From: a virus
Taxonomy: Duplodnaviria; Heunggongvirae; Uroviricota; Caudoviricetes
IMG/VR virus record: IMGVR_UViG_2690316286_000008
Length of the DNA: 25,738 bases
Reading direction: 5' to 3' (one strand)
Shown: in pieces, positions 3,669-22,631 of the stretch
How the letters are laid out: each line of letters starts with the position of its first letter
Position numbering within the stretch: position 1 is the stretch's first letter
Position numbers and translations under genes: made by a program
The notes under the pieces: generated by a model
Seen by the model: the letters and a program-made list of their open reading frames with translations, nothing else
Database searches by the model: none
Told to the model about the DNA's origin: nothing

Positions 3669-4128
3669 CGCTTTCCCCCCACGTCACATCCTGGAATACA
3701 TGCGACCAGTCGCCTTCGGAAGAGGGCAGGCGGGGTTTTGGCTCCGGCAGGTGTTCTGCCTGCGGTGTGCCCTGACTGCTGCGCGTGATGCGAACGCGTT
3801 CCCGCAGGGGGAGCGTAAACAGGAGATCGGCGCTGTCATCGTCATTGATAACGGCGGAAAATTTGATGTCCTGATTACGCTCCGGATTGAGCAACAACTG
3901 TGGCTGATTTTCGGATAACCACGCCAGCAGCGGCAGCGTGAGGTCGTCCAGCTCTCCGGCGTAATCCATGACAAACATCACTATCTGATAGCGGTAAACA
4001 AACGATGGGGTTTCTCCGGTCGTTTCAATGTTGCCGCTCTCCACGAAAATGGTGAATTTTTCCGGGTTGGCATGACACCACCGGCATGAACGGGTCATGG
4101 CTTCACGCAGGGAATCAGTTTTCAGCAT
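3661..4128 (-). CDS. R: Tail completion protein gpR
   Basis: 155-aa ORF, same size and position as P2 R. Confidence 0.8.
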   Translation of the reverse strand: MLKTDSLREAMTRSCRWCHANPEKFTIFVESGNIETTGETPSFVYRYQIVMFVMDYAGELDDLTLPLLAWLSENQPQLLLNPERNQDIKFSAVINDDDSADLLFTLPLRERVRITRSSQGTPQAEHLPEPKPRLPSSEGDWSHVFQDVTWGESDG

Positions 4129-4405
4129 GGTTGTTGTCCTCGTTGTTCAGTCGTTGCAGCCTGCGCTGTTCCAGTAATTCAATGGCCCGCTTATCGGCGT
4201 TACAGGTTTCCAGTGCGTCCATGAGGCTGTCGCTCCATATCCCGATGTTTCCCCATGATGGCGTCACCGGAAACGGCGGGGGAAGTACGGGGGCGGTCAG
4301 CCCTTCCGGGATGAAACGGAACGACGGCGGCGGCGCGGACGCGTTCTGCGTGCTGGTGCAACCGCTCAGTAAAGCGAGCGTCAGGAACAGCGCGGGCACA
4401 TGCAT
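4115..4405 (-). CDS. lysC: Outer-membrane spanin (LysC/Rz1-like lipoprotein), embedded in alternate frame of lysB
   Basis: ORF 4115..4435 in +1 frame within lysB 3' half; internal ATG at 4405 gives signal peptide plus lipobox (LTLALLSGC) and Pro-rich body typical of o-spanins. Confidence 0.6.
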   Translation of the reverse strand: MHVPALFLTLALLSGCTSTQNASAPPPSFRFIPEGLTAPVLPPPFPVTPSWGNIGIWSDSLMDALETCNADKRAIELLEQRRLQRLNNEDNNHAEN

Positions 4406-4673
4406 CTGTCGTGATATCGTTGCGTAGCTGTTCACGTCGGATTTCCCCTTCCTGTTGTCGGTTCTGGCGCGCTGTCATGACGTCACGCAGTACACCGGAT
4501 GCGGTGCTGATGATGGTGCCGGCCTCTTTCAGGGTCCGGCTGTAATCGTCCAGTTGCGCCTGTGTATAACGGTTGTGTCCGTCTTCCTGCCCCAGTCTGA
4601 ATGTCTGCCAGAGTGTTATGGTCAGCAGCGTGAGGACGGTCAGTGCCATCATCAGGATGTAACGCACTTTCAT
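4200..4673 (-). CDS. lysB: Inner-membrane spanin (LysB/Rz-like)
   Basis: 157-aa ORF with N-terminal TM segment (ILMMALTVLTLLTITLW) and charged coiled-coil body; immediately downstream of endolysin K (ATGA overlap). Confidence 0.65.
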   Translation of the reverse strand: MKVRYILMMALTVLTLLTITLWQTFRLGQEDGHNRYTQAQLDDYSRTLKEAGTIISTASGVLRDVMTARQNRQQEGEIRREQLRNDITTDACARAVPDARFTERLHQHAERVRAAAVVPFHPGRADRPRTSPAVSGDAIMGKHRDMERQPHGRTGNL

Positions 4674-5218
4674 GACTGGCCTCCGGTGTCACGTAAGCAC
4701 CATGCACGAAAATCAGTACGACGGTTAACCAGTCCCTGTGAGCGTTCGCCGCCGCTGTTCACGAAGTCAGTCAGTCTGTTGCACATGTCAGGCCAGTTGT
4801 GCGCCTGTGCATGTTTCCAGATAGTGGTGCGGTGGTAGTTACGGTTCTTATCCCTGAACCACATAAGATTTCTGCATCCAAGATTAAAGGCGGCATCTGT
4901 CATTGCCTCAAACGCGGACTGTGGCATGGCGTTGCCGCTGAAGTTCTGATTTATGCAGTTTTCTGCATGTTGCATATCATTAACCCAGCGCCCGGCGACT
5001 TCCGTTTCGGTGTACAGACGATTTTCCACATGCCCGGTCGAGCCGCACCCCACGGTCATTACCCCGGCAATATCCCGGTAAGGCGTTGCGCGACAGTCCT
5101 CCCATGTGGCAATGCGGATTTGCGCTTCCGGGCTGGTCCGGAGTTTGTGAGGGGCAATGGAGAACCCCAGCGCCACAATGGCGGCTACGGCGTAACGTTT
5201 AACGGGCAGCTTTATCAT
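4670..5218 (-). CDS. K: Endolysin gpK (phage lysozyme)
   Basis: 182-aa ORF following holin; position and size match P2 K. Confidence 0.8.
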   Translation of the reverse strand: MIKLPVKRYAVAAIVALGFSIAPHKLRTSPEAQIRIATWEDCRATPYRDIAGVMTVGCGSTGHVENRLYTETEVAGRWVNDMQHAENCINQNFSGNAMPQSAFEAMTDAAFNLGCRNLMWFRDKNRNYHRTTIWKHAQAHNWPDMCNRLTDFVNSGGERSQGLVNRRTDFRAWCLRDTGGQS

Positions 5219-5501
5219 GTGTATCGTTATCCCGCAGAATGTTCAGAGCCTGACGCTCACTGTCGTGAAGTGGCCGTGCGTCTGACTGCGCCAGGATACT
5301 GGCGATGAGTTCATTGCGACGCTGCATGGCGGTTTCCATCAGGCGGCGATGTCGCCAGGCATGTAATGCAGACAGAGAACCGAGTAACAACCCGGCAAGG
5401 GCGATTTTTTCACTGATGGTCATCACGCCTATTGTGGTGGCTGTGACTGATGCCCAGAAGGTGATCCAGTCACTCACCCGCTGAAAAAAACCTGTTACCA
5501 T
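5199..5501 (-). CDS. Y: Holin gpY
   Basis: ORF 5199..5708 trimmed to ATG at 5501 (100 aa) which abuts gpX stop; product has hydrophobic TM segments (WITFWASVTATTIGVM, IALAGLLLGSLSAL) and charged C-terminus. Confidence 0.7.
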   Translation of the reverse strand: MVTGFFQRVSDWITFWASVTATTIGVMTISEKIALAGLLLGSLSALHAWRHRRLMETAMQRRNELIASILAQSDARPLHDSERQALNILRDNDTHDKAAR

Positions 5502-5692
5502 AGCTGTATCATCTCTCGTTGTTTTTTCTTCTCCGGCTCCGGCATTTCCACCTCCTGTCCGGCTTCCAGAAATACCTGTCGGCAGAGTCCGGGGTTGGCA
5601 TCCAGCACCTTTTCGGTGACGCCCTGCGTCGTGCCGTAGTACCGGAAACAGAGCGAATCCACGGTGTCGCCTTCCAGTGTCTTCACTTTCAT
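5495..5692 (-). CDS. X: Tail protein gpX
   Basis: ORF 5495..5725 trimmed to ATG at 5692 (65 aa) forming ATGA overlap with L stop; size matches P2 X. Confidence 0.7.
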   Translation of the reverse strand: MKVKTLEGDTVDSLCFRYYGTTQGVTEKVLDANPGLCRQVFLEAGQEVEMPEPEKKKQREMIQLW

Positions 5693-6186
5693 CAGCACAA
5701 CTCCGCAAAGATTCGCGGGCGGCACAGAATGTCAGAGATGGCCCAGCTCACATCGCGCCACAAATCCGATGTCTGTATATCCAGTGCGTCCGCCCGGCGG
5801 TCGCCCTTGTCCGTTGTGTCCGCATCGCGGTAACGCTCCAGAATCAGGGCGCGTGTGGCGGTATAAACAGCATTGCGCCAGTGCCAGAGATTGACGCTTT
5901 CTCCGTTAATTACAGGTGCCGGAACATCGGCCAGCGTCTGATGGCCAGCCGCCTGCTGTTCCTGCTGCCATGCTTCCAGCTCGCGGGTAACGTGTGCCAC
6001 GGCCCCGGTGGCGGTATGCAGCAGGCGGGAGGTGGTCACGCGGCCCGGCAGTCGTACCGCCAGACGCAGCTCGCGCAGCACAATATCCGGCCAGAATGCA
6101 CCCGCTGAAATACGGGTATCGCCATCTTCGGTGTCGGTGATGTCGTCCTCTGCGGGTCCGGGTTCAGTTCTGGCAACCATACTCAT
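5692..6186 (-). CDS. L: Head completion protein gpL
   Basis: ORF 5692..6195; first ATG at 6186 preceded by AGGAG; C-terminal region ...LADVPAPVINGESV...ERYR...DELWRD... matches gpL family. Confidence 0.8.
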   Translation of the reverse strand: MSMVARTEPGPAEDDITDTEDGDTRISAGAFWPDIVLRELRLAVRLPGRVTTSRLLHTATGAVAHVTRELEAWQQEQQAAGHQTLADVPAPVINGESVNLWHWRNAVYTATRALILERYRDADTTDKGDRRADALDIQTSDLWRDVSWAISDILCRPRIFAELC

Positions 6187-6261
6187 GGGGTTCACTCCTG
6201 AAAAAATCGGGCGGTGGGTGCGCGGTGTAAACGGTCACGGAGCCAAACCGGAACACCGCGC

Positions 6262-6387
6262 NNNNNNNNNNNNNNNNNNNNNNNNNNNNNNNNNNNNNNN
6301 NNNNNNNNNNNNNNNNNNNNNNNNNNNNNNNNNNNNNNNNNNNNNNNNNNNNNNNNNNNNNNNNNNNNNNNNNNNNNNNNNNNNNNN
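6262..6387. other. Assembly gap (run of 126 N)
   Basis: Literal N characters in the sequence. Confidence 0.97.
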
Positions 6388-6419
6388 CCGCGCACGCCGC
6401 CCGCTGACGGGGTCAGTCG

Positions 6420-7220
6420 TTAACCGCGCTTCGCCTTCTGCGTCGCGGTGGTTTTTCGTGTTGCAGGCTTCCGCGTTGTCTTTTTACTTTCGCTGCTTTC
6501 GTCCTGCGCCTGCTGTGCGCTGGCGTCTTCTGGTGCGGCTGCGGAATCGGCTTTTTTCAGGGCGCGGGAAAGGGTTGCAATCTCGCGTTTCACACCTGCG
6601 TTCTGGTTCAGATGCATCGCTTCGCGCAGCAGCTTCAGTGATGAGGCCATGCTGTCCGCATCGCTCAGGCCACGGCGGGCAAAGGCGCACGCCTTGCATA
6701 ATTTGGCGCGCACTTCGTCCGGCATATCCTGGTTGGCGACAATTTCCCAAAGTGTGTCCAGTGGTTCGATAAAGACGGACAAATCCGCGTCGGCATCCGT
6801 CCCGGCCTGCGTCAGTACCGGATTGCAGATTTCTTCGGTCAGCACTGTGGCAGCAGTACGGCCAAAGTTATCCGGCATGATGAGGTTGTGACGGACCGCA
6901 TACGCACCAATACGCAGCGCAAGCGGAAGATCGCCGCAGTCAATCGCCCACACCATCAGCGTGGCAATCACTTCGTCCTGTTGCCCGCCGTCAGCCTCCA
7001 GCGTTCCCTCAATCCAGCCGGAAAAGTCCGGCAACAACGCTTTTTTGATGTCGGCTTTCGCGCTTCTGGCCTGTACGCCCTTAAGCCGGGCCTGTGCCAG
7101 ACGCAGACGATACAGCACCTCTTCATGCGCGGTACGCGCGGCGTGGTCCACACCTTCATTCGCCCGGCCTGCGCGCTGTGCCATCACGTTCTGCCAGTGT
7201 TGCTGTGCAGGAGTAATCAT
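6420..7220 (-). CDS. M: Terminase small (endonuclease) subunit gpM
   Basis: 266-aa ORF; conserved ...DMPDEVRAKL... and ...NAGVKREI... blocks as in P2 gpM; basic C-terminal tail; synteny. Confidence 0.85.
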   Translation of the reverse strand: MITPAQQHWQNVMAQRAGRANEGVDHAARTAHEEVLYRLRLAQARLKGVQARSAKADIKKALLPDFSGWIEGTLEADGGQQDEVIATLMVWAIDCGDLPLALRIGAYAVRHNLIMPDNFGRTAATVLTEEICNPVLTQAGTDADADLSVFIEPLDTLWEIVANQDMPDEVRAKLCKACAFARRGLSDADSMASSLKLLREAMHLNQNAGVKREIATLSRALKKADSAAAPEDASAQQAQDESSESKKTTRKPATRKTTATQKAKRG

Positions 7221-9332: not shown

Positions 9333-11084
9333 ATGATTCAGGACGCTTTTGTGCGCCAGCGTGCGCGGCAACTTTACTGGCAGGGTTATCCGCCCGCAGA
9401 AATATCACGTCTGATGGGAATAAACCCGAACACGATTTATGCGTGGAAAAAACGCGACCAGTGGGATGAAACGCCACCCGTGCAGCGTGTCACGCAGTCC
9501 ATCGATGCGCGCCTCATCCAGCTTACTGAAAAACAGAATAAAACAGGTGGTGACTTTAAGGAAATAGACCTGCTGACCCGGCAGCTTAAAAAACTGCATG
9601 ATGGCCAGCCGGATGCGACGGCCACAGGAAAGAAAGGCCGGGCGAAAAAACTCAAAAATCATTTCACGCCGGAACAGATTGCCGCACTGCGGGAAAAAAT
9701 CATCAGCAGGCTGGAGTGGCATCAGCGGGGCTGGTTTGACTCCCTGACGCTTTGCAGGGAAGCCGGGATACGTAACAGGATGATCCTGAAATCCCGACAG
9801 ATTGGGGCGACCTGGTATTTTGCACAGGAAGCACTGCTGATGGCGCTGCGTGACGATGTGGCACAACCTTACCAGCGTAACCAGATTTTTTTGTCTGCGT
9901 CGCGTCGTCAGGCGTTCCAGTTTAAAAGCATTATTCAGAAGGCCGCGGCTGAAGTCGATGTGGAGCTGAAAGGGGGCGATAAAATCATCCTCTCCAACGG
10001 CGCAGAGATGCATTTTCTCGGCACTTCTGCTGCGACGGCGCAATCTTACACGGGCAATTTTTATTTTGATGAATTTTTCTGGGTCAGTCGCTTTGCTGAA
10101 CTGCGCAAGGTGGCTGGCGCTATGGCAACCCTCAGCGGACTGCGGCGCACCTGCTTCTCCACGCCATCCACCGAAACGCACGAGGCATACGCCTACTGGA
10201 ACGGCGACCGCTGGAACGAGAAAAAGGCCGCGCATAAACGCCAGCGTTTTTCTGTGGACTGGAAAACGCTGCATAACGGGCTTATCTGCCCTGACCGGAC
10301 GTGGCGGCAAATTGTCACGCTGGAAGATGTGGTTAATCACGGCTGGAAACACACCGATATTGATGAAATTCGTGATGAAAACACCGAAGACGAGTTCCGC
10401 AATCTCTATATGTGTGAGTTTGTCCGCGAAGGGGAATCGGCATTTAACCTGAATATCCTGATTGGCTGCGGTGTTGACGGATACGACGACTGGAAAGACT
10501 GGAAACCCTTTGCCCCCCGCCCGATGGGGAATCGTCCGGTATGGATTGGGTATGACGCAAACGGCAGCAGTGGTAACGGCGACAGCGGCGCTGTGTCCGT
10601 GGTGGTTCCTCCGGCTGTTCCTGGTGGTCGTTTCAGAACGGTGGAGACGCGACGCGTTCAGGGGCTGGAATTTGAAGAGCAGGCCAGAGTTATTGAAGAG
10701 TTCACGTATCGCTACAACGTGGAACACATCGGCATTGATGCGACGGGCGGGCACGGGGATGCCGTCTATCAGATAGTGAAACGGTTTTTTCCCGCCGCCA
10801 TCCCTTACACCTTCACGCTGTCATCAAAACGGTCGCTGGTACTGAAAATGCTGCAAATAATGCGTGCCGGGCGGTGGGAATACGATCGCGCCGAACGCGA
10901 GCTGGTTGCGGCCTTTAACGCCGTGCGTAAGGTGAAAACACCGGGCGGTTTTATCACTTACGAAACGGACCGCGCGAGGGGGATCAGCCACGGCGACCTT
11001 GCGTGGGCAACCATGCTTGCTGTCATTAACGAACCGATTGGCGGCGAAGGAGAAAACGAGCGTTTCACGGTTATGGAGTTCTGA
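9333..11084 (+). CDS. P: Terminase large (ATPase) subunit gpP
   Basis: 583-aa ORF with RBS GGGGGAG; size and position equal P2 P; stop overlaps Q start. Confidence 0.92.
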   Translation: MIQDAFVRQRARQLYWQGYPPAEISRLMGINPNTIYAWKKRDQWDETPPVQRVTQSIDARLIQLTEKQNKTGGDFKEIDLLTRQLKKLHDGQPDATATGKKGRAKKLKNHFTPEQIAALREKIISRLEWHQRGWFDSLTLCREAGIRNRMILKSRQIGATWYFAQEALLMALRDDVAQPYQRNQIFLSASRRQAFQFKSIIQKAAAEVDVELKGGDKIILSNGAEMHFLGTSAATAQSYTGNFYFDEFFWVSRFAELRKVAGAMATLSGLRRTCFSTPSTETHEAYAYWNGDRWNEKKAAHKRQRFSVDWKTLHNGLICPDRTWRQIVTLEDVVNHGWKHTDIDEIRDENTEDEFRNLYMCEFVREGESAFNLNILIGCGVDGYDDWKDWKPFAPRPMGNRPVWIGYDANGSSGNGDSGAVSVVVPPAVPGGRFRTVETRRVQGLEFEEQARVIEEFTYRYNVEHIGIDATGGHGDAVYQIVKRFFPAAIPYTFTLSSKRSLVLKMLQIMRAGRWEYDRAERELVAAFNAVRKVKTPGGFITYETDRARGISHGDLAWATMLAVINEPIGGEGENERFTVMEF

Positions 11085-12130
11085 TGAGCAGAAAAAATAA
11101 AAAAGTGCGCATGAGTTCACGCATTGATCTCGCTGATGCGCTCAGGAAAGAATCGTCGCTCAGTGCATTCACATTTGATGGTCCTTACCGCCTGACCGGG
11201 CATGACCTGCTGGACAATATGTACTGTGCTGATAACGGGCGGTGGTATGAAACCCCGGTGGACTGGTACGGTCTGGCAAGAGCTGCCCGGCAAACGTCCT
11301 GGCATCAGTCTGCGCTTTACTTTAAGCGCAATGTATTGCTCGGCTGCTATATTCCGCACCCGCTGCTTTCCCGGCAGGATTTCTCGGCGCTGGCGCTGGA
11401 CTGGTTTGTGTTCGGTAACGCATTCCTTGAGCTTCGGAGCAATATGCTCGGCGAACCGCTTAAATTACGGCACGCCCTGGCGAAATACATGCGACGCGGA
11501 AGCGATCTTGAATCATGGTGGTATGTGCAGGATGGCAAGGATGCGTTTCAGTTTCGTCCTGGCAAAGTGTGCCACCTGATGAATCCGGATATTAACCAGG
11601 AAATCTACGGCATGCCGGAATATCTTGGCGCATTACTCTCGGCCAGCCTTTCTCATTCGGCGGACATGTTCAGAAAACTGTACTACGACAACGGATCCCA
11701 CGCCGGGTGCATCATCTACATCGGTGCAGCGCAGGTAAACCGCGAAAGCATGGACTCCCTGAAAGAAACGCTACAGGGGGCACGTGGTGGTGGTGCGTTT
11801 AAAAACGTGCTCATTCATGCGCCCAACGGGGGCAAAGAGGGGGTGCAAATTTTGCCGTTCCAGCAGATCACCGCAAAGGATGAGTTCATGAATGTTAAGG
11901 CGGCATCCCGTGATGATGTGCTGGCTGCGCACCGCGTTCCGCCGCAACTGATGGGGGCGATGCCGGGCGAAAAAAGTGCGTTTGGTGATGTGGAGAAGGC
12001 CGCGCGGGTTTACGCAATTAACGAGCTGATGCCCGTCATGGAGGCCATGAAGCACATCAATGACTGGCTTGGCGAAGAGGTGATCCGCTTTAACCCTTAC
12101 GCACTGTTAGACACCCAGCCCACATCCTGA
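11084..12130 (+). CDS. Q: Portal protein gpQ
   Basis: 348-aa ORF immediately after P; size and position equal P2 Q. Confidence 0.9.
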   Translation: MSRKNKKVRMSSRIDLADALRKESSLSAFTFDGPYRLTGHDLLDNMYCADNGRWYETPVDWYGLARAARQTSWHQSALYFKRNVLLGCYIPHPLLSRQDFSALALDWFVFGNAFLELRSNMLGEPLKLRHALAKYMRRGSDLESWWYVQDGKDAFQFRPGKVCHLMNPDINQEIYGMPEYLGALLSASLSHSADMFRKLYYDNGSHAGCIIYIGAAQVNRESMDSLKETLQGARGGGAFKNVLIHAPNGGKEGVQILPFQQITAKDEFMNVKAASRDDVLAAHRVPPQLMGAMPGEKSAFGDVEKAARVYAINELMPVMEAMKHINDWLGEEVIRFNPYALLDTQPTS

Positions 12131-12621
12131 CGCGCTTCGCTTGTCTGCTGCTTCGCCGGGGCATAAAAAATTTATGCCCCGACTCTCCAGCTCCTGTATC
12201 AGTCAGATAATTTCACGACGCTTTCCTGCTGATTGCCATCATCGACAGTCAGACTCTTACGCAATCCCACCTCGTTGACTGCATATTCTCGCCGTCTCAG
12301 TGCGATTTTGACGGCCTTACCTTTCACCCCATCAAATCAAAAGCCCTCACGTCTTTTTCACGCTCAGCGTGAGAAATACAGCCATTCTGTTGTATCTCTG
12401 CGACATCGTTCAGGGAATGCTATTTACCCCCTGAAACGCGGGCTGTTCCCCCGTCACCTGCGCGCAGAAAAAACGCGTTTTTTTGTGCATGCACGGATCC
12501 TTGACGGATCCAGCCGCCACGCGGGCCGGAAGGGCAAAAAGTCGTTCAAAAAAATTGTGCAAATTTGTGCACTATTGTGCATTTATAAAATCAACTAAAA
12601 AACACCTAGTGTGACTTACCT
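12131..12621. other. Non-coding region expected to contain cos (packaging site), rich in palindromes and phased repeats
   Basis: Synteny (cos lies beside Q in P2); partial resemblance of reverse-complement of 12511-12523 (GCGTGGCGG) to the start of the recalled P2/186 cohesive-end sequence; not verified. Confidence 0.4.
12555..12581. repeat. Three TTGTGCA direct repeats phased at exactly 10 bp (a fourth copy at 12483-12489)
   Basis: Read directly: attgtgcaaatttgtgcactattgtgcattt. Confidence 0.85.
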
Positions 12622-12807
12622 CTACCACTCGATCGGCACGTAGTCATTAAGTTCCGGAGACCAATTGCACTTTTCACATCTGTGTTTTCCATTCTGGCAG
12701 ATACATAAACGATAACGGCCACAATGCGGGCACCCATTTTCACCATTATCATAATCACCGAGCGACCATTCCTGCATAAGCAGCTCTTCTTCATCATCAT
12801 TTAGCAT
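12622..12807 (-). CDS. Small Cys-rich zinc-ribbon protein (61 aa), unknown function
   Basis: ATG at 12807 preceded by AAGGGGG RBS; CPHCG...CIC...CEKC cysteine pattern; acidic N-terminus; last gene of cargo operon. Confidence 0.55.
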   Translation of the reverse strand: MLNDDEEELLMQEWSLGDYDNGENGCPHCGRYRLCICQNGKHRCEKCNWSPELNDYVPIEW

Positions 12808-12821
12808 TAATCCCCCTTGAG

Positions 12822-13061
12822 CTATTTACTCTTCTCGGCCCTCAAAATCATACGAGAACCATCATCCAGCTCCCAATTAATTTCACCGCCTTCTGCCATG
12901 ACTAGATGCCAAACGAGTTGAGCGGCCTCGTTGGTTACATCGCGACCGCGATCATTTCCTACGCGGCGTTTTGTTCCGTCTCCTAAGTCACGCATTTTTG
13001 CCAATACGATGGTTTTTGATAGCGGTGAAAAACCAAGCTGTAGTCGTGCTGAATTACTCAC
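12822..13061 (-). CDS. Hypothetical small protein (79 aa, GTG start)
   Basis: GTG at 13061 overlapping stop of upstream gene (GTGA) with AAGGGGG RBS 6 nt upstream; stop TAG lies inside RBS of next gene. Confidence 0.5.
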   Translation of the reverse strand: MSNSARLQLGFSPLSKTIVLAKMRDLGDGTKRRVGNDRGRDVTNEAAQLVWHLVMAEGGEINWELDDGSRMILRAEKSK

Positions 13062-13582
13062 TGGCTGCCCCCTTTGTACTGTGTTAACTCTTCCTGCTCC
13101 TGCATCATGCGATTGACCTGAACGCGTGTGCGTCGAACGGCAAAATTAAATTGAAACATGAGCCGGAACATTTCTGATGCTTCCGTGTGAGCATCACGGA
13201 TAGGTGACAGGCGGTACAGTTCTGCCTCCGTAGCTTGTTGAATCAATGACAGATCAAATTGAAGTGCGGGTCTGGTACATTTTGCACATCTGGCAGCAAG
13301 CTCCGGTATTAGTCTCTTAACGAAGGTGTTTTGCACCGCTTTGTTGATTTGTGTCTGCATCCAAATCGCAAATTTCAGCGAACGCATAAGTTTGATAGCC
13401 TCGGGCAGCGGCAGATAGATCATGCTGGTAGATTTGGGTGGTTGGTGAACCATCTTCACGGATACGCGATTTCGCAGCGTTCGGAAAATCGTGTTCCCAA
13501 CAACAGCTTCTACGGATACAGGACAGGGAGCCAGACCAGCCCGCAGTGCTTCTTTCATTAGCATGTATTCGTATTTTTTCAT
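13058..13582 (-). CDS. Hypothetical protein (174 aa), unknown function
   Basis: ATG at 13582 with GAGGA RBS; no family recognised by eye. Confidence 0.6.
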   Translation of the reverse strand: MKKYEYMLMKEALRAGLAPCPVSVEAVVGNTIFRTLRNRVSVKMVHQPPKSTSMIYLPLPEAIKLMRSLKFAIWMQTQINKAVQNTFVKRLIPELAARCAKCTRPALQFDLSLIQQATEAELYRLSPIRDAHTEASEMFRLMFQFNFAVRRTRVQVNRMMQEQEELTQYKGGSQ

Positions 13583-13642
13583 CGTGTTTTCCTCGTGCGG
13601 GGCGACAGTGCACCCCGATAAAATTAAAAGCCGTCAAATTCG

Positions 13643-13954
13643 TCATTCAGGAAATAATGCCCGGATATTCCCTGCTATCTGACTGGTTATCTGTGCGGTT
13701 GGTACTGGCTGTGGCACGGGGCGTTCTGTCCTGGTTTGTGTCACCGATAACGCCTCATCGTCAGCCCATGCAGCCAGTCGGTAAGCCTCTGCTGGATTCA
13801 TTTTCAGAAGTGCCAGCCCGGCCAGAAAAGCCACGCGTTGGCCGCTTTTGCGGGCTTCTGGTGTAAGGCTGCCCAGCCAGGCGCATGCTTCGCTTTCGTT
13901 CTTGACGGTCGCAGGCTTCAGATAGAAACTTATCCGTCTGGTTGGTGTCGTCAT
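13643..13954 (-). CDS. parR: ParR-like DNA-binding protein (type II partition adaptor-like), 103 aa
   Basis: ORF 13643..14089 trimmed to ATG 13954 (AGGAG RBS, 4 nt after parM stop); blocks RRISFYLKP and RVAFLAGLALL...NP parallel R1 ParR (RRTIAFKLNP, RAALTAGLALY..DP), and terminal NIRALFPE parallels ILRSLFPKE. Confidence 0.65.
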   Translation of the reverse strand: MTTPTRRISFYLKPATVKNESEACAWLGSLTPEARKSGQRVAFLAGLALLKMNPAEAYRLAAWADDEALSVTQTRTERPVPQPVPTAQITSQIAGNIRALFPE

Positions 13955-13958
13955 TGGT

Positions 13959-14918
13959 TTACTCCTTGTCCATTGCGTACAGCCCATTAACCAGAGCAAA
14001 CTGTGGCACCCCGTCCGCGATGAAAGTCGCATTAACTCCGCAGGCTTCGCGGATAGCGGGTGCCACAATCTCCGCCCCTCCACCGACAACCATCACCCGC
14101 CCGTAACCCGAAAAACCCGCCAGCGCGCGGATCACGCGTTGTTTCAGTGTTTCTTCCTTTTCACGAATAACCGCCATCAGGCTGGCGTAATGCGCGTCAT
14201 TGTGGATGTGCTGGCGCAGCCAGGCTTCATCATGGCGATGTTCGATAATGGTATTGGCGATGTGGTGACTGGTGCGCATACCGTTAGTGGCCATCACCGA
14301 CAGTACGGCATCGGCCATCAGAGAAACGCCTACGTGTGGATCGCAAAACACCTGGCTGATACCTGCCAGTTGCCCCTGAACCTTTGCCACATCCAGCGTG
14401 GTTCCGCCCAAATCCACAATCAGCAGGGATTCAAACGGACTCATGTCAGCCAGTGCCTTAAAGCCAGCCGGAATGGATTCAGGCATAACCCGCACGTTAC
14501 GGATAGTGAATGCTTCGCCGTTCTGGTACTCCACCGGGCGCATAACGTTCGCTTTTTTGCGGTTGATGTTGGCCATGTCCGGCTGTGCGTTTGTGTCGAA
14601 ATACTCGCTCAGTGGCAGGGTGACAACCACATCCACCTCCTGTGGCGTGATGCCTGATTTGACCAGCGCGTGATGAATGGCAATGACATTTACATCGCTG
14701 TACTGGTATTGCGTGTCGGTTGTCTGGACAAAGCGATCGCTGACCGGATCAAAACCATAGCGCACGCCATCAAGCATGTAGTTCGCGGGCTGCATGCCAC
14801 CGAACGGCGCAGACCATTCCGACTTGAAGCTGTTCGGGCTGATGGCGTTGCGGCGTTCGCCGTTCTCAGTCCATGCCAGCTTGATGTTGGTGGAGCCGTC
14901 GTCGATACAAATTTTCAT
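13959..14918 (-). CDS. parM: ParM/StbA-like actin-fold ATPase (319 aa)
   Basis: Translation MKICIDDGSTNIKL...YSDVNVIAIHHAL...MPESIPAG...LLIVDLGGTTLD...VMVVGGGAEIV...LVNGLYAM aligns along full length with recalled plasmid R1 ParM, including phosphate-binding and adenosine motifs. Confidence 0.85.
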   Translation of the reverse strand: MKICIDDGSTNIKLAWTENGERRNAISPNSFKSEWSAPFGGMQPANYMLDGVRYGFDPVSDRFVQTTDTQYQYSDVNVIAIHHALVKSGITPQEVDVVVTLPLSEYFDTNAQPDMANINRKKANVMRPVEYQNGEAFTIRNVRVMPESIPAGFKALADMSPFESLLIVDLGGTTLDVAKVQGQLAGISQVFCDPHVGVSLMADAVLSVMATNGMRTSHHIANTIIEHRHDEAWLRQHIHNDAHYASLMAVIREKEETLKQRVIRALAGFSGYGRVMVVGGGAEIVAPAIREACGVNATFIADGVPQFALVNGLYAMDKE

Positions 14919-14945
14919 GTCGCTTTTCCTTATGTTGATTAATTA

Positions 14946-15062
14946 ATCGTTTACGGGATTCTGAAATCCCGTTTTTGCCTGTTTTGTGCGCGCTTCATAT
15001 ATCGCTGCGCGTTTTTTGCTCATTTACGGGATTCGTGAGTCCCGTTTCTGTCTGTTTTTTGT
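14946..15062 (+). terminator. Cluster of three plus-strand hairpin+T-tract elements (two are near-identical ~40-bp copies with palindrome ACGGGATT..AATCCCGT) between parM start and end of gene A
   Basis: Read directly: tttacgggattctgaaatcccgtttttgcctgtttt (14950-14985) and tttacgggattcgtgagtcccgtttctgtctgtttttt (15023-15060), plus gcgcgc..gcgcgtttttt between. Confidence 0.55.
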
Positions 15063-20251: not shown

Positions 20252-20563
20252 ATGTCAATAGAGATATCAAAGAAGCTAAAAGCAATTCGAGAATCTGAGG
20301 GGCTTAGTCAGGCAAAGTTCGCGGATTCAATAGGTATTGCGGTTGGTACGGTTAAGCAATACGAGACTGGTATTCGAGGTGTGGGAACGGAGGTTTTACT
20401 GAAAATCACAATGCACCCGGAATTTAAAAAATACACTACGTGGTTGATGAGTAACGAAACAAATGAGGCTGCTGGGCAGATCAGTCCTTCTCTCTCCCCT
20501 GATGGGCCAGAAAACACATCGTCTTCTCAAAAATCCCGCAAGACTGGCACACAGCCCGGCTAA
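20252..20563 (+). CDS. C: Immunity repressor C (HTH, P2 C-like), 103 aa
   Basis: ORF 20150..20563 trimmed to ATG 20252 (AGGTG RBS); helix-turn-helix block LSQAKFADSIGIAVGTVKQYETG; C-terminal ...FKKYTTWLMSNE... resembles P2 C. Confidence 0.8.
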   Translation: MSIEISKKLKAIRESEGLSQAKFADSIGIAVGTVKQYETGIRGVGTEVLLKITMHPEFKKYTTWLMSNETNEAAGQISPSLSPDGPENTSSSQKSRKTGTQPG

Positions 20564-20612
20564 TCATGGAACGCTGGGGGCATGGTGGTCTTGTAACGCT
20601 GGGGCTTCACGA

Positions 20613-21590
20613 ATGAGCATAAAATCAATTCCGGGAGGGTATCTTCTTGACATGCGTCCTGAGGGGCGTAAAGGCAAACGCATTCGCAAAAAATTTAAAA
20701 CGAAATCGGATGCAGTTTTATATGAGCGGTGGGTGCTGGCGCAACAGCATAACAATGAGTGGAAAGGAAACTCCATTGATCGCCGTCCGCTGTCAGTGCT
20801 TATTGACTTGTGGTGGAAATACCACGGCCAGCTAATGAAGTCAGGGCATAACACGCGCCTTAAATTGCTGCGCTTGAGTGAGGCAATGGATGACCCGTGC
20901 GTGCATAAACTTAATACAACGATGCTCACCGAGCTACGTGTGTCCAGGATAGAGCAGGGGATACAGCCCAGCACCATAAATCGAGAGATTGGGGCGTTAA
21001 GCGCGATGTTTACCGCACTCATCTCATCCGGCCATTTTCTTAACGATAACCCCGTTCAAGGCCTTAAAGGAATGAAGGTTAACGAGCGTGAAATGGGATA
21101 TCTGAGTAAGTCTGAATGTGTTCAGTTGCTGGATGCACTGGCTGAAAATCCCGATGAACGGCTGGCCGTCGAAATCCTTCTGTCGACCGGGGCGCGATGG
21201 GGCGAGGTAGCGGCACTGGAGCAGCGCCGTGTTCTTCATTGTCGAATCACTTTTTCAAAAACGAAGAACAGCAAAAACCGTACCGTTCCTATTTCTGAAA
21301 GCCTGTTTGAAAAGATCAAAAAACGGGGCGGGAAACTGGTGTTTCCGACGCTGGATTATTCATTGGTTCGCGATGTCATCAAAACGGTCGCACCTGATGT
21401 TCCTGACGGCCAGGCTGTTCATGCGCTGCGCCACACCTTCGCCAGTCATTTCATGATGAACGGCGGCAATATTCTGACGCTCCAGAAAATTCTGGGGCAC
21501 GCAAAGATTCAGACAACGATGATTTATGCCCATCTTGCGCCGGATTACTTGCAGGATGCGGTGAGGTTTAATCCCTTGGGAGGAATGTAA
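20613..21590 (+). CDS. int: Tyrosine integrase, P2 Int family (325 aa)
   Basis: ORF 20463..21590 trimmed to ATG 20613 (MSIKSIPGGYLLDMRPEGRKGKRIRKKF... parallels P2 Int N-terminus); catalytic motifs LSTGARWGEV, HALRHTFASHF, MIYAHLAPDYLQDA. Confidence 0.9.
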   Translation: MSIKSIPGGYLLDMRPEGRKGKRIRKKFKTKSDAVLYERWVLAQQHNNEWKGNSIDRRPLSVLIDLWWKYHGQLMKSGHNTRLKLLRLSEAMDDPCVHKLNTTMLTELRVSRIEQGIQPSTINREIGALSAMFTALISSGHFLNDNPVQGLKGMKVNEREMGYLSKSECVQLLDALAENPDERLAVEILLSTGARWGEVAALEQRRVLHCRITFSKTKNSKNRTVPISESLFEKIKKRGGKLVFPTLDYSLVRDVIKTVAPDVPDGQAVHALRHTFASHFMMNGGNILTLQKILGHAKIQTTMIYAHLAPDYLQDAVRFNPLGGM

Positions 21591-21592
21591 CT

Positions 21593-22093
21593 ATGGAAAT
21601 AAAAAAACCTACAAAAAAAGAGTTATATGACTATTTACTATCGAAATATATAGAAGATAAATGCAAAGAAGAAGCTGATGAAATCAATAAGAAGTCGATG
21701 AGTCGTGTCAAAAAACATAAAGAGCGGCTGATGGAGATTACGCCAGAAATCTTCTTCCGTTTCTTGTCTGAGAAGGGGGTCTCCAGTGTCTGCCCTTCAT
21801 GTGGATCGTCGCGATTATCTGTTCCAGAAAGTATGGATCTTTGCTGGGATAAAAATAAGAAACCAGAAAATTTTAACAATCTACCCCTGGAGGAACAGAG
21901 TGAGTTAATTAAAGAGAACATAAAGCATTATGTATCTTATGCTTTTTTGGGTGATGTTAAGAGCATACCTGATATGCGCAAAACTTATTACACGCTGCAT
22001 TGCCTGAATTGTGGTTACCTGAGCCTTTATCGTACGTCTGCGGTGCTGAAGTGGTTGGAGAAAGACAAAGCGCAGGATGGTGATAATGGGTAA
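21593..22093 (+). CDS. AT-rich zinc-ribbon protein (166 aa), unknown function
   Basis: ATG 2 nt after int stop, GGGAGGAA RBS inside int 3' end; CPSCG...CLNCG motifs; Lys/Glu-rich N-terminus; low G+C relative to flanks. Confidence 0.6.
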   Translation: MEIKKPTKKELYDYLLSKYIEDKCKEEADEINKKSMSRVKKHKERLMEITPEIFFRFLSEKGVSSVCPSCGSSRLSVPESMDLCWDKNKKPENFNNLPLEEQSELIKENIKHYVSYAFLGDVKSIPDMRKTYYTLHCLNCGYLSLYRTSAVLKWLEKDKAQDGDNG

Positions 22094-22631
22094 TGTAGCA
22101 AGAAATCTTTTCGGTAATTCAGCAGGTAGTGTGTCGCATTCTGAGCGTGATGTGCTTTATCATGGTGGCGATGGCGGCAGTAGTGGAGGCGGAATGTCAG
22201 ATAAACTTGAAAGGCGAATTGAGCGGCTCGAAGGTGATTTATCGCTAACAAGAAACGACCTTGCGACGCTTGCTGAACGCACTACAAACCTCTCAACTAA
22301 AGCCGATGTTGGTGAGGTGAAAGGTGAACTCAAAGCAGACATAGCACATCTGAAAGGTGATCTTGAATGCGATATTGCGAATCTGAAAGGTGAGCTTAAA
22401 TCTGATACAGCTAACCTGAAAGAGCAGCTCAAATCAGACATTAACAGCCTGAAGGGTGAGCTTACCGAAGCGATGGATAAACGCTTTGACAAGATTATGG
22501 ATGAGATGAATCGGCGGTTTGACAAGGTTGATGATAATACGAAGTGGCGTTGGAGTGGCATTATTGTGCCAGTGTGCACAACCATTTTCACAGCGGCGGT
22601 TGCTGTATTTGTTGCTAAATTTGTTGGCTGA
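22077..22631 (+). CDS. Coiled-coil protein with C-terminal transmembrane anchor (184 aa from first ATG; 145 aa if start is ATG 22194 with GGAGG RBS)
   Basis: Repeated LKGELK/LKGDLE heptad-like units then hydrophobic tail WSGIIVPVCTTIFTAAVAVFVAKFVG; overlaps upstream gene stop; architecture resembles DUF1640/XhlA-like tail-anchored proteins. Confidence 0.6.
   Translation: MVIMGNVARNLFGNSAGSVSHSERDVLYHGGDGGSSGGGMSDKLERRIERLEGDLSLTRNDLATLAERTTNLSTKADVGEVKGELKADIAHLKGDLECDIANLKGELKSDTANLKEQLKSDINSLKGELTEAMDKRFDKIMDEMNRRFDKVDDNTKWRWSGIIVPVCTTIFTAAVAVFVAKFVG

Follow-up and report, generated by a model that had tools for sequence, protein, structure and literature searches.

The window analysed here, a 25,738-nucleotide (nt) stretch of viral DNA (IMG/VR record IMGVR_UViG_2690316286_000008), is an integrated P88-like (Xuanwuvirus) prophage that adjoins btuC. 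Between its replication gene A and the portal gene Q it carries five minus-strand genes, and the first two of these, parM and parR (together parMR), encode an actin-fold partition ATPase and its predicted centromere-binding adaptor. From the comparison of related loci we conclude that in this phage lineage parMR is fixed and does not count as exchangeable cargo, and by its sequence features the unit of parM, parR and the leader in front of them is a compact R1-type (type II) partition cassette. Both the partition system and the hotspot in which it lies have already been published, and the three genes that follow parR are ordinary shuffled accessory genes; what is added here is that the hotspot boundary in this lineage is the parR stop and not gene A. 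By analogy with other integrating elements, we think it fairly probable that ParMR segregates or positions extrachromosomal phage circles during short non-integrated phases.

Results

parM and parR stay with gene A

The window was compared with 86 related loci, consisting of 80 from IMG/VR, three species representatives and three annotated records. ParM was 98-100% identical in all 86, whatever follows downstream, and in nearly all of them parM starts 76 nt past A. In some relatives the portal was only 30% identical, yet ParM was 99% identical. Ten loci (L004, L027, L038, L041, L044, L047, L054, L058, L068 and L085) combined an A-parM-parR block of 96-99% identity with such a 30% portal; in those ten relatives the head and packaging module is swapped and the replication-partition module is kept. 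Homology to the window ended at the parR stop (13642-13647) in 55 of the 86 loci and within the 3' half of parR in the others, and it resumed on the cos side at 12581-12602. Because ParM is constant in the 86 loci and the breaks fall at the end of parR, parMR can be regarded as fixed, and only the segment of about 12603-13642 as exchangeable. The recombination breaks in the 3' half of parR show that the hotspot boundary sometimes cuts into this gene. One of the loci, L005 (NZ_JBQPOM010000071.1), is labelled Vagococcus sp.; with a ParM of 98% and a portal of 100% identity it is most likely enterobacterial contamination.

The element is common in Escherichia coli. With matches of 90-99% identity and at least 80% query coverage, parM-parR was found in 1278 of 5426 complete E. 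coli genomes (24%), and 1453 of its 1455 copies were chromosomal. The P88-type A gene was found in 1319 complete genomes. A contig search with ParM returned three near-identical loci only, which does not amount to a deep phylogeny.

Rousset et al. 2022 (Cell Host Microbe, PMC9122126) described the gpA-gpQ hotspot and reported that about a quarter of P2-like phages have a putative system for plasmid partitioning, and Pfeifer et al. 2021 (Nucleic Acids Research, NAR, PMC7969092) listed P88 as a putative phage-plasmid, flagged its partition genes and suggested episomal and integrative states. The system in the window is the same element, with a ParM 99.7% identical to that of P88, the same locus and a similar frequency. 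Both papers treat parMR as an interchangeable system of the hotspot, whereas in the loci compared here parM-parR did not behave as exchangeable cargo and stayed beside A. A preliminary description of the window, made from its letters alone, had taken all five genes for exchangeable cargo at the cos-A interval and had found the combination undescribed. Exchangeability holds for the segment of about 12603-13642 and fails for parMR, and the partition genes had in fact been reported in both of these papers. The same description had named a conserved core block as the finding that would speak against its proposal, and this is what parMR turned out to be, since it is a conserved block of this P2-like branch.

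Features of ParM and ParR

ParM aligned over its full length (residues 2-316) to structures of R1 ParM (1MWK and others) with an E value of 8.5e-93. The nucleotide-binding motifs DDGSTNIK, DLGGTTLD and GGGAE are kept, which leaves the phosphate-binding and adenosine motifs intact. Across 69 distinct parM alleles, the ratio of nonsynonymous to synonymous substitution rates (dN/dS) was 0.05, at a synonymous divergence of up to 0.24. The closest phage ParM outside the lineage is that of the phage-plasmid D6 (47.8% identity), and ParM is about 50% identical to the ParM proteins of conjugative plasmids in the same hosts.

For ParR, the open reading frame (ORF) called mechanically (TTG start, 148 amino acids (aa), 13643-14089) overlaps parM and was discarded. 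The true start is the ATG at 13954; the PHROG and Pfam matches both set in there, and the RefSeq annotation of relatives puts the start of parR at the same place. A family profile built from 19 homologues had as its best match in the PDB the N-terminal domain of pB171 StbB/ParR (2JD3, E 0.0015). This sequence-profile match was used in place of a structure prediction: the AlphaFold2 (AF2) monomer model of ParR reached a mean predicted local distance difference test score (pLDDT) of 56, and its Foldseek search against the PDB gave only noise (best E 2.6). The ribbon-helix-helix (RHH) fold requires a dimer. Together with the Pfam and PHROG matches (Table 1), these PDB matches bear out the ParM-like and ParR-like identities proposed in the preliminary description.

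Within ParR, residues 1-65 are conserved, residues 66-95 form a hypervariable linker and the C-terminal NI..(L/F)FP tip is invariant; a helix at residues 86-100 was predicted at the C-terminus by the poor AF2 monomer model. The dN/dS values were 0.14 for the RHH part (residues 1-65), 0.36 for the linker and 0.035 for the tip. At least seven allelic clusters of ParR, down to 49% identity, occur beside a ParM kept at 98-100% (examples are L004, L020, L029, L040, L055, L074 and the window itself). Their differences are concentrated in the linker of about 30 residues; the N-terminal strand RRISFYLKP and both helices are common to all clusters, and the tip is invariant even between ParR types that share about 50% identity elsewhere. 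This anatomy is what would be expected of a working ParR, in which a flexible linker connects an RHH domain for DNA binding to a predicted ParM-capturing peptide, and it argues against a decaying relic.

Two conserved palindromes in the parM leader

The leader of about 140 bp upstream of parM contains two 42-nt direct repeats that lie 73 bp apart and each include a 20-bp palindrome (Table 1). The palindromes follow the pattern ACGGGAyTC-N-AATCCCGT, which in its full form occurs in the window at these two sites alone (4 strand-matches against 0.56 expected). They were kept in 53 of 53 distinct leaders and with all ParR types, and their GGGA/TCCC core is invariant. In addition, the 135-nt leader has seven occurrences of AAAC where 0.76 would be expected (spacings of 7, 10, 33, 30, 10 and 22 nt), and the A-tracts are phased. 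We infer from these features that the two repeats are a candidate parC centromere and ParR operator.

The locus L090 combines another A gene with an additional gene of 151 aa, and there the two repeats are found within a 184-nt non-coding leader; the repeats therefore belong to the par module. In the window, the last codons of gpA, about 20 in number (14995-15061), read through repeat 1, and the equivalent DNA of L090 (2483-2665) is non-coding. As a relative with another type of A has this DNA as non-coding sequence, the reading frame of gene A appears to have been extended into a captured par cassette.

Three TGCACAA repeats at 12551-12580 were considered as a downstream centromere and rejected, because they lie in the conserved cos flank and are also found in phage 500465-2, which has no ParM. 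They have a spacing of 10-11 bp and overlap a terminator-like hairpin on the cos side. Given their presence in a phage without ParM, they are more likely tied to packaging or termination than to partition.

Expression signals

A consensus sigma-70 scan found no promoter-like site in the par leader. One weak candidate between the palindromes (ATGAGC-16-TATATG) runs across the stop codon of A and has changes in some relatives, and it was not relied on. In a scan of the minus strand, no terminator-like site was found between genes from A to 12572, and three were found within coding sequence, two of them in parM and one in the 79-aa gene. In relatives, the early genes, cox to parR with A among them, all point in one direction and are separated by short gaps. 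As there is no leader promoter and no intergenic terminator, and the genes are co-oriented and closely spaced, parMR and the genes after it seem to form the tail of the early operon and would be expressed on infection or induction. For the three small genes, read-through on this early transcript is probable.

The variable segment and its three small genes

The segment of about 12603-13642 is variable: 62 loci have 51 distinct versions of it, with 29 arrangements of genes, and the window's own version (12606-13642) was not covered to 80% in any complete E. coli genome. Its first gene encodes a 174-aa protein with no match in Pfam, PHROGs, NCBIfam, PADLOC or the PDB. The family comprises 8 clusters in 5.8 billion proteins, all of them enterobacterial, and an AF2 model from a 5-sequence alignment (pLDDT 50) was too poor for a fold search. 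The gene was present in 9 of the 62 loci with three different sets of neighbours, and elsewhere it stands beside Ead/Ea22-like or ClpX-zinc-finger genes. The second gene, DUF7446, is the only one of the three that was traced to other phages: at 80-91% DNA identity it is found among the early genes of the ea/ead region in lambdoid and P22-like phages, where its neighbours are Ea22, EaD, ClpX-zinc-finger, Erf and anti-RecBCD genes. The third gene, a zinc ribbon, always follows DUF7446 (5 of 5 loci), and the pair also occurs elsewhere beside other genes and in the absence of the 174-aa gene. A 100% identical zinc-ribbon gene in strain FDAARGOS_943 (L003 3495-3677) is left unannotated in RefSeq. 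A 64-aa ORF that overlaps the zinc-ribbon gene in another frame (12606-12800) is probably spurious.

All three genes were found together in 4 of the 62 loci, and the trio of the window recurs in three IMG/VR loci. The five-gene unit of the preliminary description thus did not hold up: the five genes are not inherited together, the small genes also occur apart, and parMR is near-universal in the lineage. The small genes are linked to ParMR by adjacency alone, in a minority of phages, and their distribution marks them as separately mobile accessory genes, of which at least DUF7446 comes from the lambdoid ea/ead gene pool. L090, a more distant ParMR-bearing P2-like phage, has after parR (4015-6684) a 66-aa gene, an SSB gene, a ClpX zinc finger, a homologue of the 174-aa gene, Ead/Ea22 and genes of 75 and 167 aa, a set that is flavoured by replication and recombination and not by defence.

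The hotspot was expected to carry defence genes, and in relatives it does. At the same site, PADLOC matched IetA-, AbiLi-, RmrA-, PDC-M04A- and PDC-M11A-like proteins; the IetA-like ATPase (E 3.6e-89) is followed by a 734-aa protein, and one further protein of a relative is PDC-S23/PDC-M59B-like, with a motif that looks Fic/Doc-like. Since these same-site proteins match, PADLOC works at this locus. For the five proteins of the window, PADLOC 2.0 gave zero matches at E values up to 0.1, and this search does not support the idea of a new defence or abortive-infection module raised in the preliminary description.

Locus and integration site

The region shows 97% identity, in two blocks, to Escherichia phage P88 (Xuanwuvirus, Peduoviridae) and to Citrobacter phage phiSM. 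The order is gene A, the five co-oriented minus-strand genes, cos and portal Q, and the ORF list, Pfam and annotated relatives all place the five-gene interval in the gpA-gpQ/cos hotspot, with the A and Q flanks that the preliminary description had given it. Its account of five tightly packed minus-strand ORFs, each with its own ribosome-binding site, was likewise confirmed from the sequence. From the A stop to the parM ATG there are 76 nt, from the parM stop to the parR ATG 4 nt and from the parR stop to the ATG of the 174-aa gene 60 nt; the 174-aa and 79-aa genes share a GTGA stop/start overlap (-4 nt), and the 79-aa gene is separated from the 61-aa gene by 14 nt. All five starts have an AGG/GGAG-type ribosome-binding site 6-9 nt upstream. 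The only replication gene seen in the window by Pfam scan was the rolling-circle initiator A, and no plasmid-type theta replicon was seen.

The tyrosine integrase gene (20463-21590) is followed by btuC, btuE, btuD and nlpC within about 1.2 kb. Complete E. coli genomes that share the int/btuC junction number 23, with identities that reach 99.9% (98.4-99.9% in the listed ones). Between the integrase gene and btuC (21593-22631) lie two low-GC ORFs, one of 166 aa and one of 184 aa with a DUF1640/CCDC90-like coiled coil, which may be phage cargo beyond int or a separate islet.

Table 1. Coordinates of the par cassette, the variable segment and their flanks in the window.
Feature	Position	Strand	Supporting detail
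gpQ portal; hotspot boundary, cos side	11084-12130	+	
Terminator-like hairpin and T-run	12557-12572	-	Inside the conserved cos-side flank, just beyond the variable segment
61-aa zinc-ribbon accessory gene	12622-12807	-	phrog_24897 E 2.6e-46; CxxC...CxxC spacing
79-aa DUF7446 accessory gene, GTG start	12822-13061	-	PF24233 E 9.7e-17; phrog_1578
174-aa accessory gene	13058-13582	-	Cassette includes 60-nt leader 13583-13642
parR, ribbon-helix-helix adaptor (predicted centromere-binding), 103 aa	13643-13954	-	PF10784 (Plasmid_stab_B) E 9.4e-23; phrog_2515 E 3.6e-55
parM, actin-fold partition ATPase, 319 aa	13959-14918	-	Pfam StbA_N E 2.7e-82; ParM C-terminal domain 1.3e-68
Leader repeat 2	14947-14988	-	Palindrome ACGGGATTTCAGAATCCCGT at 14953-14972; 34 nt upstream of parM ATG
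Leader repeat 1	15020-15061	-	Palindrome ACGGGACTCACGAATCCCGT at 15026-15045; overlaps last ~20 codons of gene A
gpA replication initiator, 940 aa	14995-17817	-	PF05840 E 6.6e-131

Discussion

Relation to known systems

The cassette resembles ParMRC of R1 (the parA locus) and the StbAB/ParMR systems of pB171 and IncF plasmids in its order of leader repeats, parM and parR, in the full-length match of ParM with intact catalytic motifs, and in a ParR of the same Pfam family, with a match to the structure of pB171 ParR. Unlike the R1 and pB171 systems, it sits in an integrating phage, joined to the 3' end of a gene for rolling-circle replication. Its leader of about 140 bp has only two palindromes in place of an array of some ten iterons, its ParR is shorter (103 aa), and it has no recognisable promoter of its own.

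Two systems of integrated elements offer a closer parallel. SrpMRC of the SXT/R391 integrative and conjugative elements is also an actin-type partition system in a normally integrated element, with a compact centromere in the 5' leader, and it was shown experimentally to stabilise the excised, rolling-circle-replicating circle (PMC4489591). The nearest layout to the four half-sites in two pairs of the window is that of srpC, with four 13-bp repeats in two pairs (PMC4489591). SrpR is, however, unrelated to ParR in sequence, and the function of the P88 system is predicted from sequence. The AlpAC/alpS system of the Corynebacterium glutamicum prophage CGP3 likewise combines an actin-like protein encoded by the prophage with a DNA adaptor; AlpAC is induced early and binds to repeats in its leader; it links the circles of induced CGP3 to filaments, and efficient replication of the excised circle depends on it (PMC4446434). 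Compared with the window cassette, its actin is a distant relative only, its adaptor gene stands first in the order and its repeats number 24.

The three small genes, for their part, sit between cos and the replication module as old and tin do in P2. Unlike Old and Tin, they have no known exclusion phenotype, are unrelated to them in sequence and are co-oriented with the early operon. The DUF7446, Ead/Ea22 and ClpX zinc finger families are shared with the ea/ead regions of lambda and P22.

A possible role in the segregation of phage circles

The reading of ParMR as a device for segregating phage circles draws on the SrpMRC and AlpAC precedents and on the fact that the cassette stays with the replication gene. 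Phage-plasmid-like maintenance, one of the roles put forward in the preliminary description, is still the best idea for ParMR, though not a new one. Starting from what was observed, namely the gene identities, their conservation, the modular shuffling around them and the repeats as part of the cassette, the following course of events can be proposed. The cassette (13643 to about 15062), which is joined to the tail of the early replication operon (cox...A), would be transcribed after infection or induction. ParR dimers would then bind the palindromes, the conserved C-terminal tip of ParR would capture the ends of ParM filaments, and growth of the filaments would push sister circular phage genomes apart. 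Non-integrated or excised circles replicated by A would in this way be positioned and passed on to both daughter cells, and would escape loss. As a more tentative extension, for which we see a limited chance, ParMR with its unusually small two-palindrome centromere may be an integral part of the rolling-circle replication module, and not cargo or a plasmid-lifestyle device, that segregates or positions circles between infection or excision and integration or packaging.

Several points weigh against segregation of circles as the role of ParMR. Nearly all copies are chromosomal and the window copy is itself integrated beside btuC, so the extrachromosomal phase must be short or rare. P2-type phages reach many copies in lytic growth, where partition is not obviously needed. 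The proposed read-through from the early promoter depends solely on consensus signals not being found. As a centromere, the candidate is minimal, with two palindromes only, and the leaders of phage-plasmid D6 and of an IncF plasmid are 270-340 bp long with several repeated motifs (at least 3 copies detected). The palindromes also resemble plus-strand terminators, and covariation of their arms was uninformative in the 53 distinct leaders, with one-sided changes only and no double changes; binding by ParR is for both reasons a conjecture. Literature searches found no experimental study of P88-like ParMR at any step.

Alternative explanations

The most substantial alternative is that P88-like phages are true phage-plasmids, like P1, D6 and KS14, in which ParMR maintains the repressed prophage as a low-copy plasmid through many generations. 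Stable plasmid lysogeny was suggested by both Rousset 2022 (PMC9122126) and Pfeifer 2021 (PMC7969092), and KS14, a P2-like Burkholderia phage, has a plasmid prophage (PMC3091744). The relatedness of ParM to that of D6 would fit, as would pZ1323PEC0009-2 (NZ_CP148288.1, L092), a 'plasmid' of a complete E. coli assembly that is a 34,461-bp circle of a whole P88-like genome, closed next to int at the attP side; we also take this circle as evidence of an extrachromosomal form. It has in addition a Hok/Gef gene near ogr, and thus relatives of both R1 stability modules, parMRC and hok/sok. Against plasmid lysogeny stand the chromosomal location of 1453 of 1455 copies, the single phage-sized circle in PLSDB and the tyrosine integrase kept in all relatives with an examined int-side end (the window, L089 and L092). 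A match in a 26.8-kb Shigella boydii 'plasmid' was rejected as an episome, as it is a linear fragment ridden with insertion sequences. The window copy is not an extrachromosomal prophage, and with A as the only initiator seen it offers no plasmid-type replicon for such a state. P2-type repressors shut off the early operon in lysogens, and parMR, which seems to be without a strong promoter of its own, sits in that operon. We therefore regard stable plasmid lysogeny as rather unlikely.

The other explanations are much less probable. ParR and ParM of the prophage might titrate or poison the ParMRC of incoming IncF-type plasmids or of rival P88-like phages, for which the identity of about 50% between ParM and the proteins of same-host conjugative plasmids could speak, and the several divergent ParR types might reflect avoidance of cross-talk. 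Yet the palindromes do not co-vary with ParR type: the seven ParR clusters have the same palindromes and the same DNA-reading strand RRISFYLKP, so the types do not differ in predicted specificity. The leader repeats of D6 and of an IncF plasmid are moreover unrelated to the window palindromes and expression in lysogens is doubtful, which makes such interference improbable in our view. We give as little credence to the idea that a plasmid cassette was captured once and hitch-hikes as a relic of no use to the phage. Sharp cassette boundaries and a plasmid ancestry would suit a relic, but the strong purifying selection on parM, at the synonymous divergence given above, the near-equal genome counts of parMR and A and the conservation of the short ParR tip motif do not. 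The lowest probability of all goes to a single new system of the five genes, directed against phages or plasmids or causing abortive infection, with a ParM filament at its core. Their tight packing and their place in a defence hotspot, where relatives have IetA-, AbiLi-, RmrA-, PDC-M04A- and PDC-M11A-like genes, would be in its favour. Shuffling has already largely refuted it, as ParMR is combined with at least 29 downstream gene sets; the five proteins have no PADLOC matches, and ParM, ParR and the repeats show the hallmarks of an ordinary partition cassette.

Implications

With its presence in 24% of complete E. coli genomes, the parMR element is very common, and the compact cassette of about 1.4 kb with a candidate two-site centromere, as defined here, is suited to cloning and testing. 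The two earlier papers raise the question of why an integrating rolling-circle phage keeps an actin-type partition system under strong purifying selection. An answer would bear on how temperate phages avoid loss between cell entry and integration, and also on where the line between prophage and plasmid lies. If ParMR is an integral part of the replication module, about a quarter of E. coli strains could harbour prophages of a family whose episomal carrier state is heritable and facultative.

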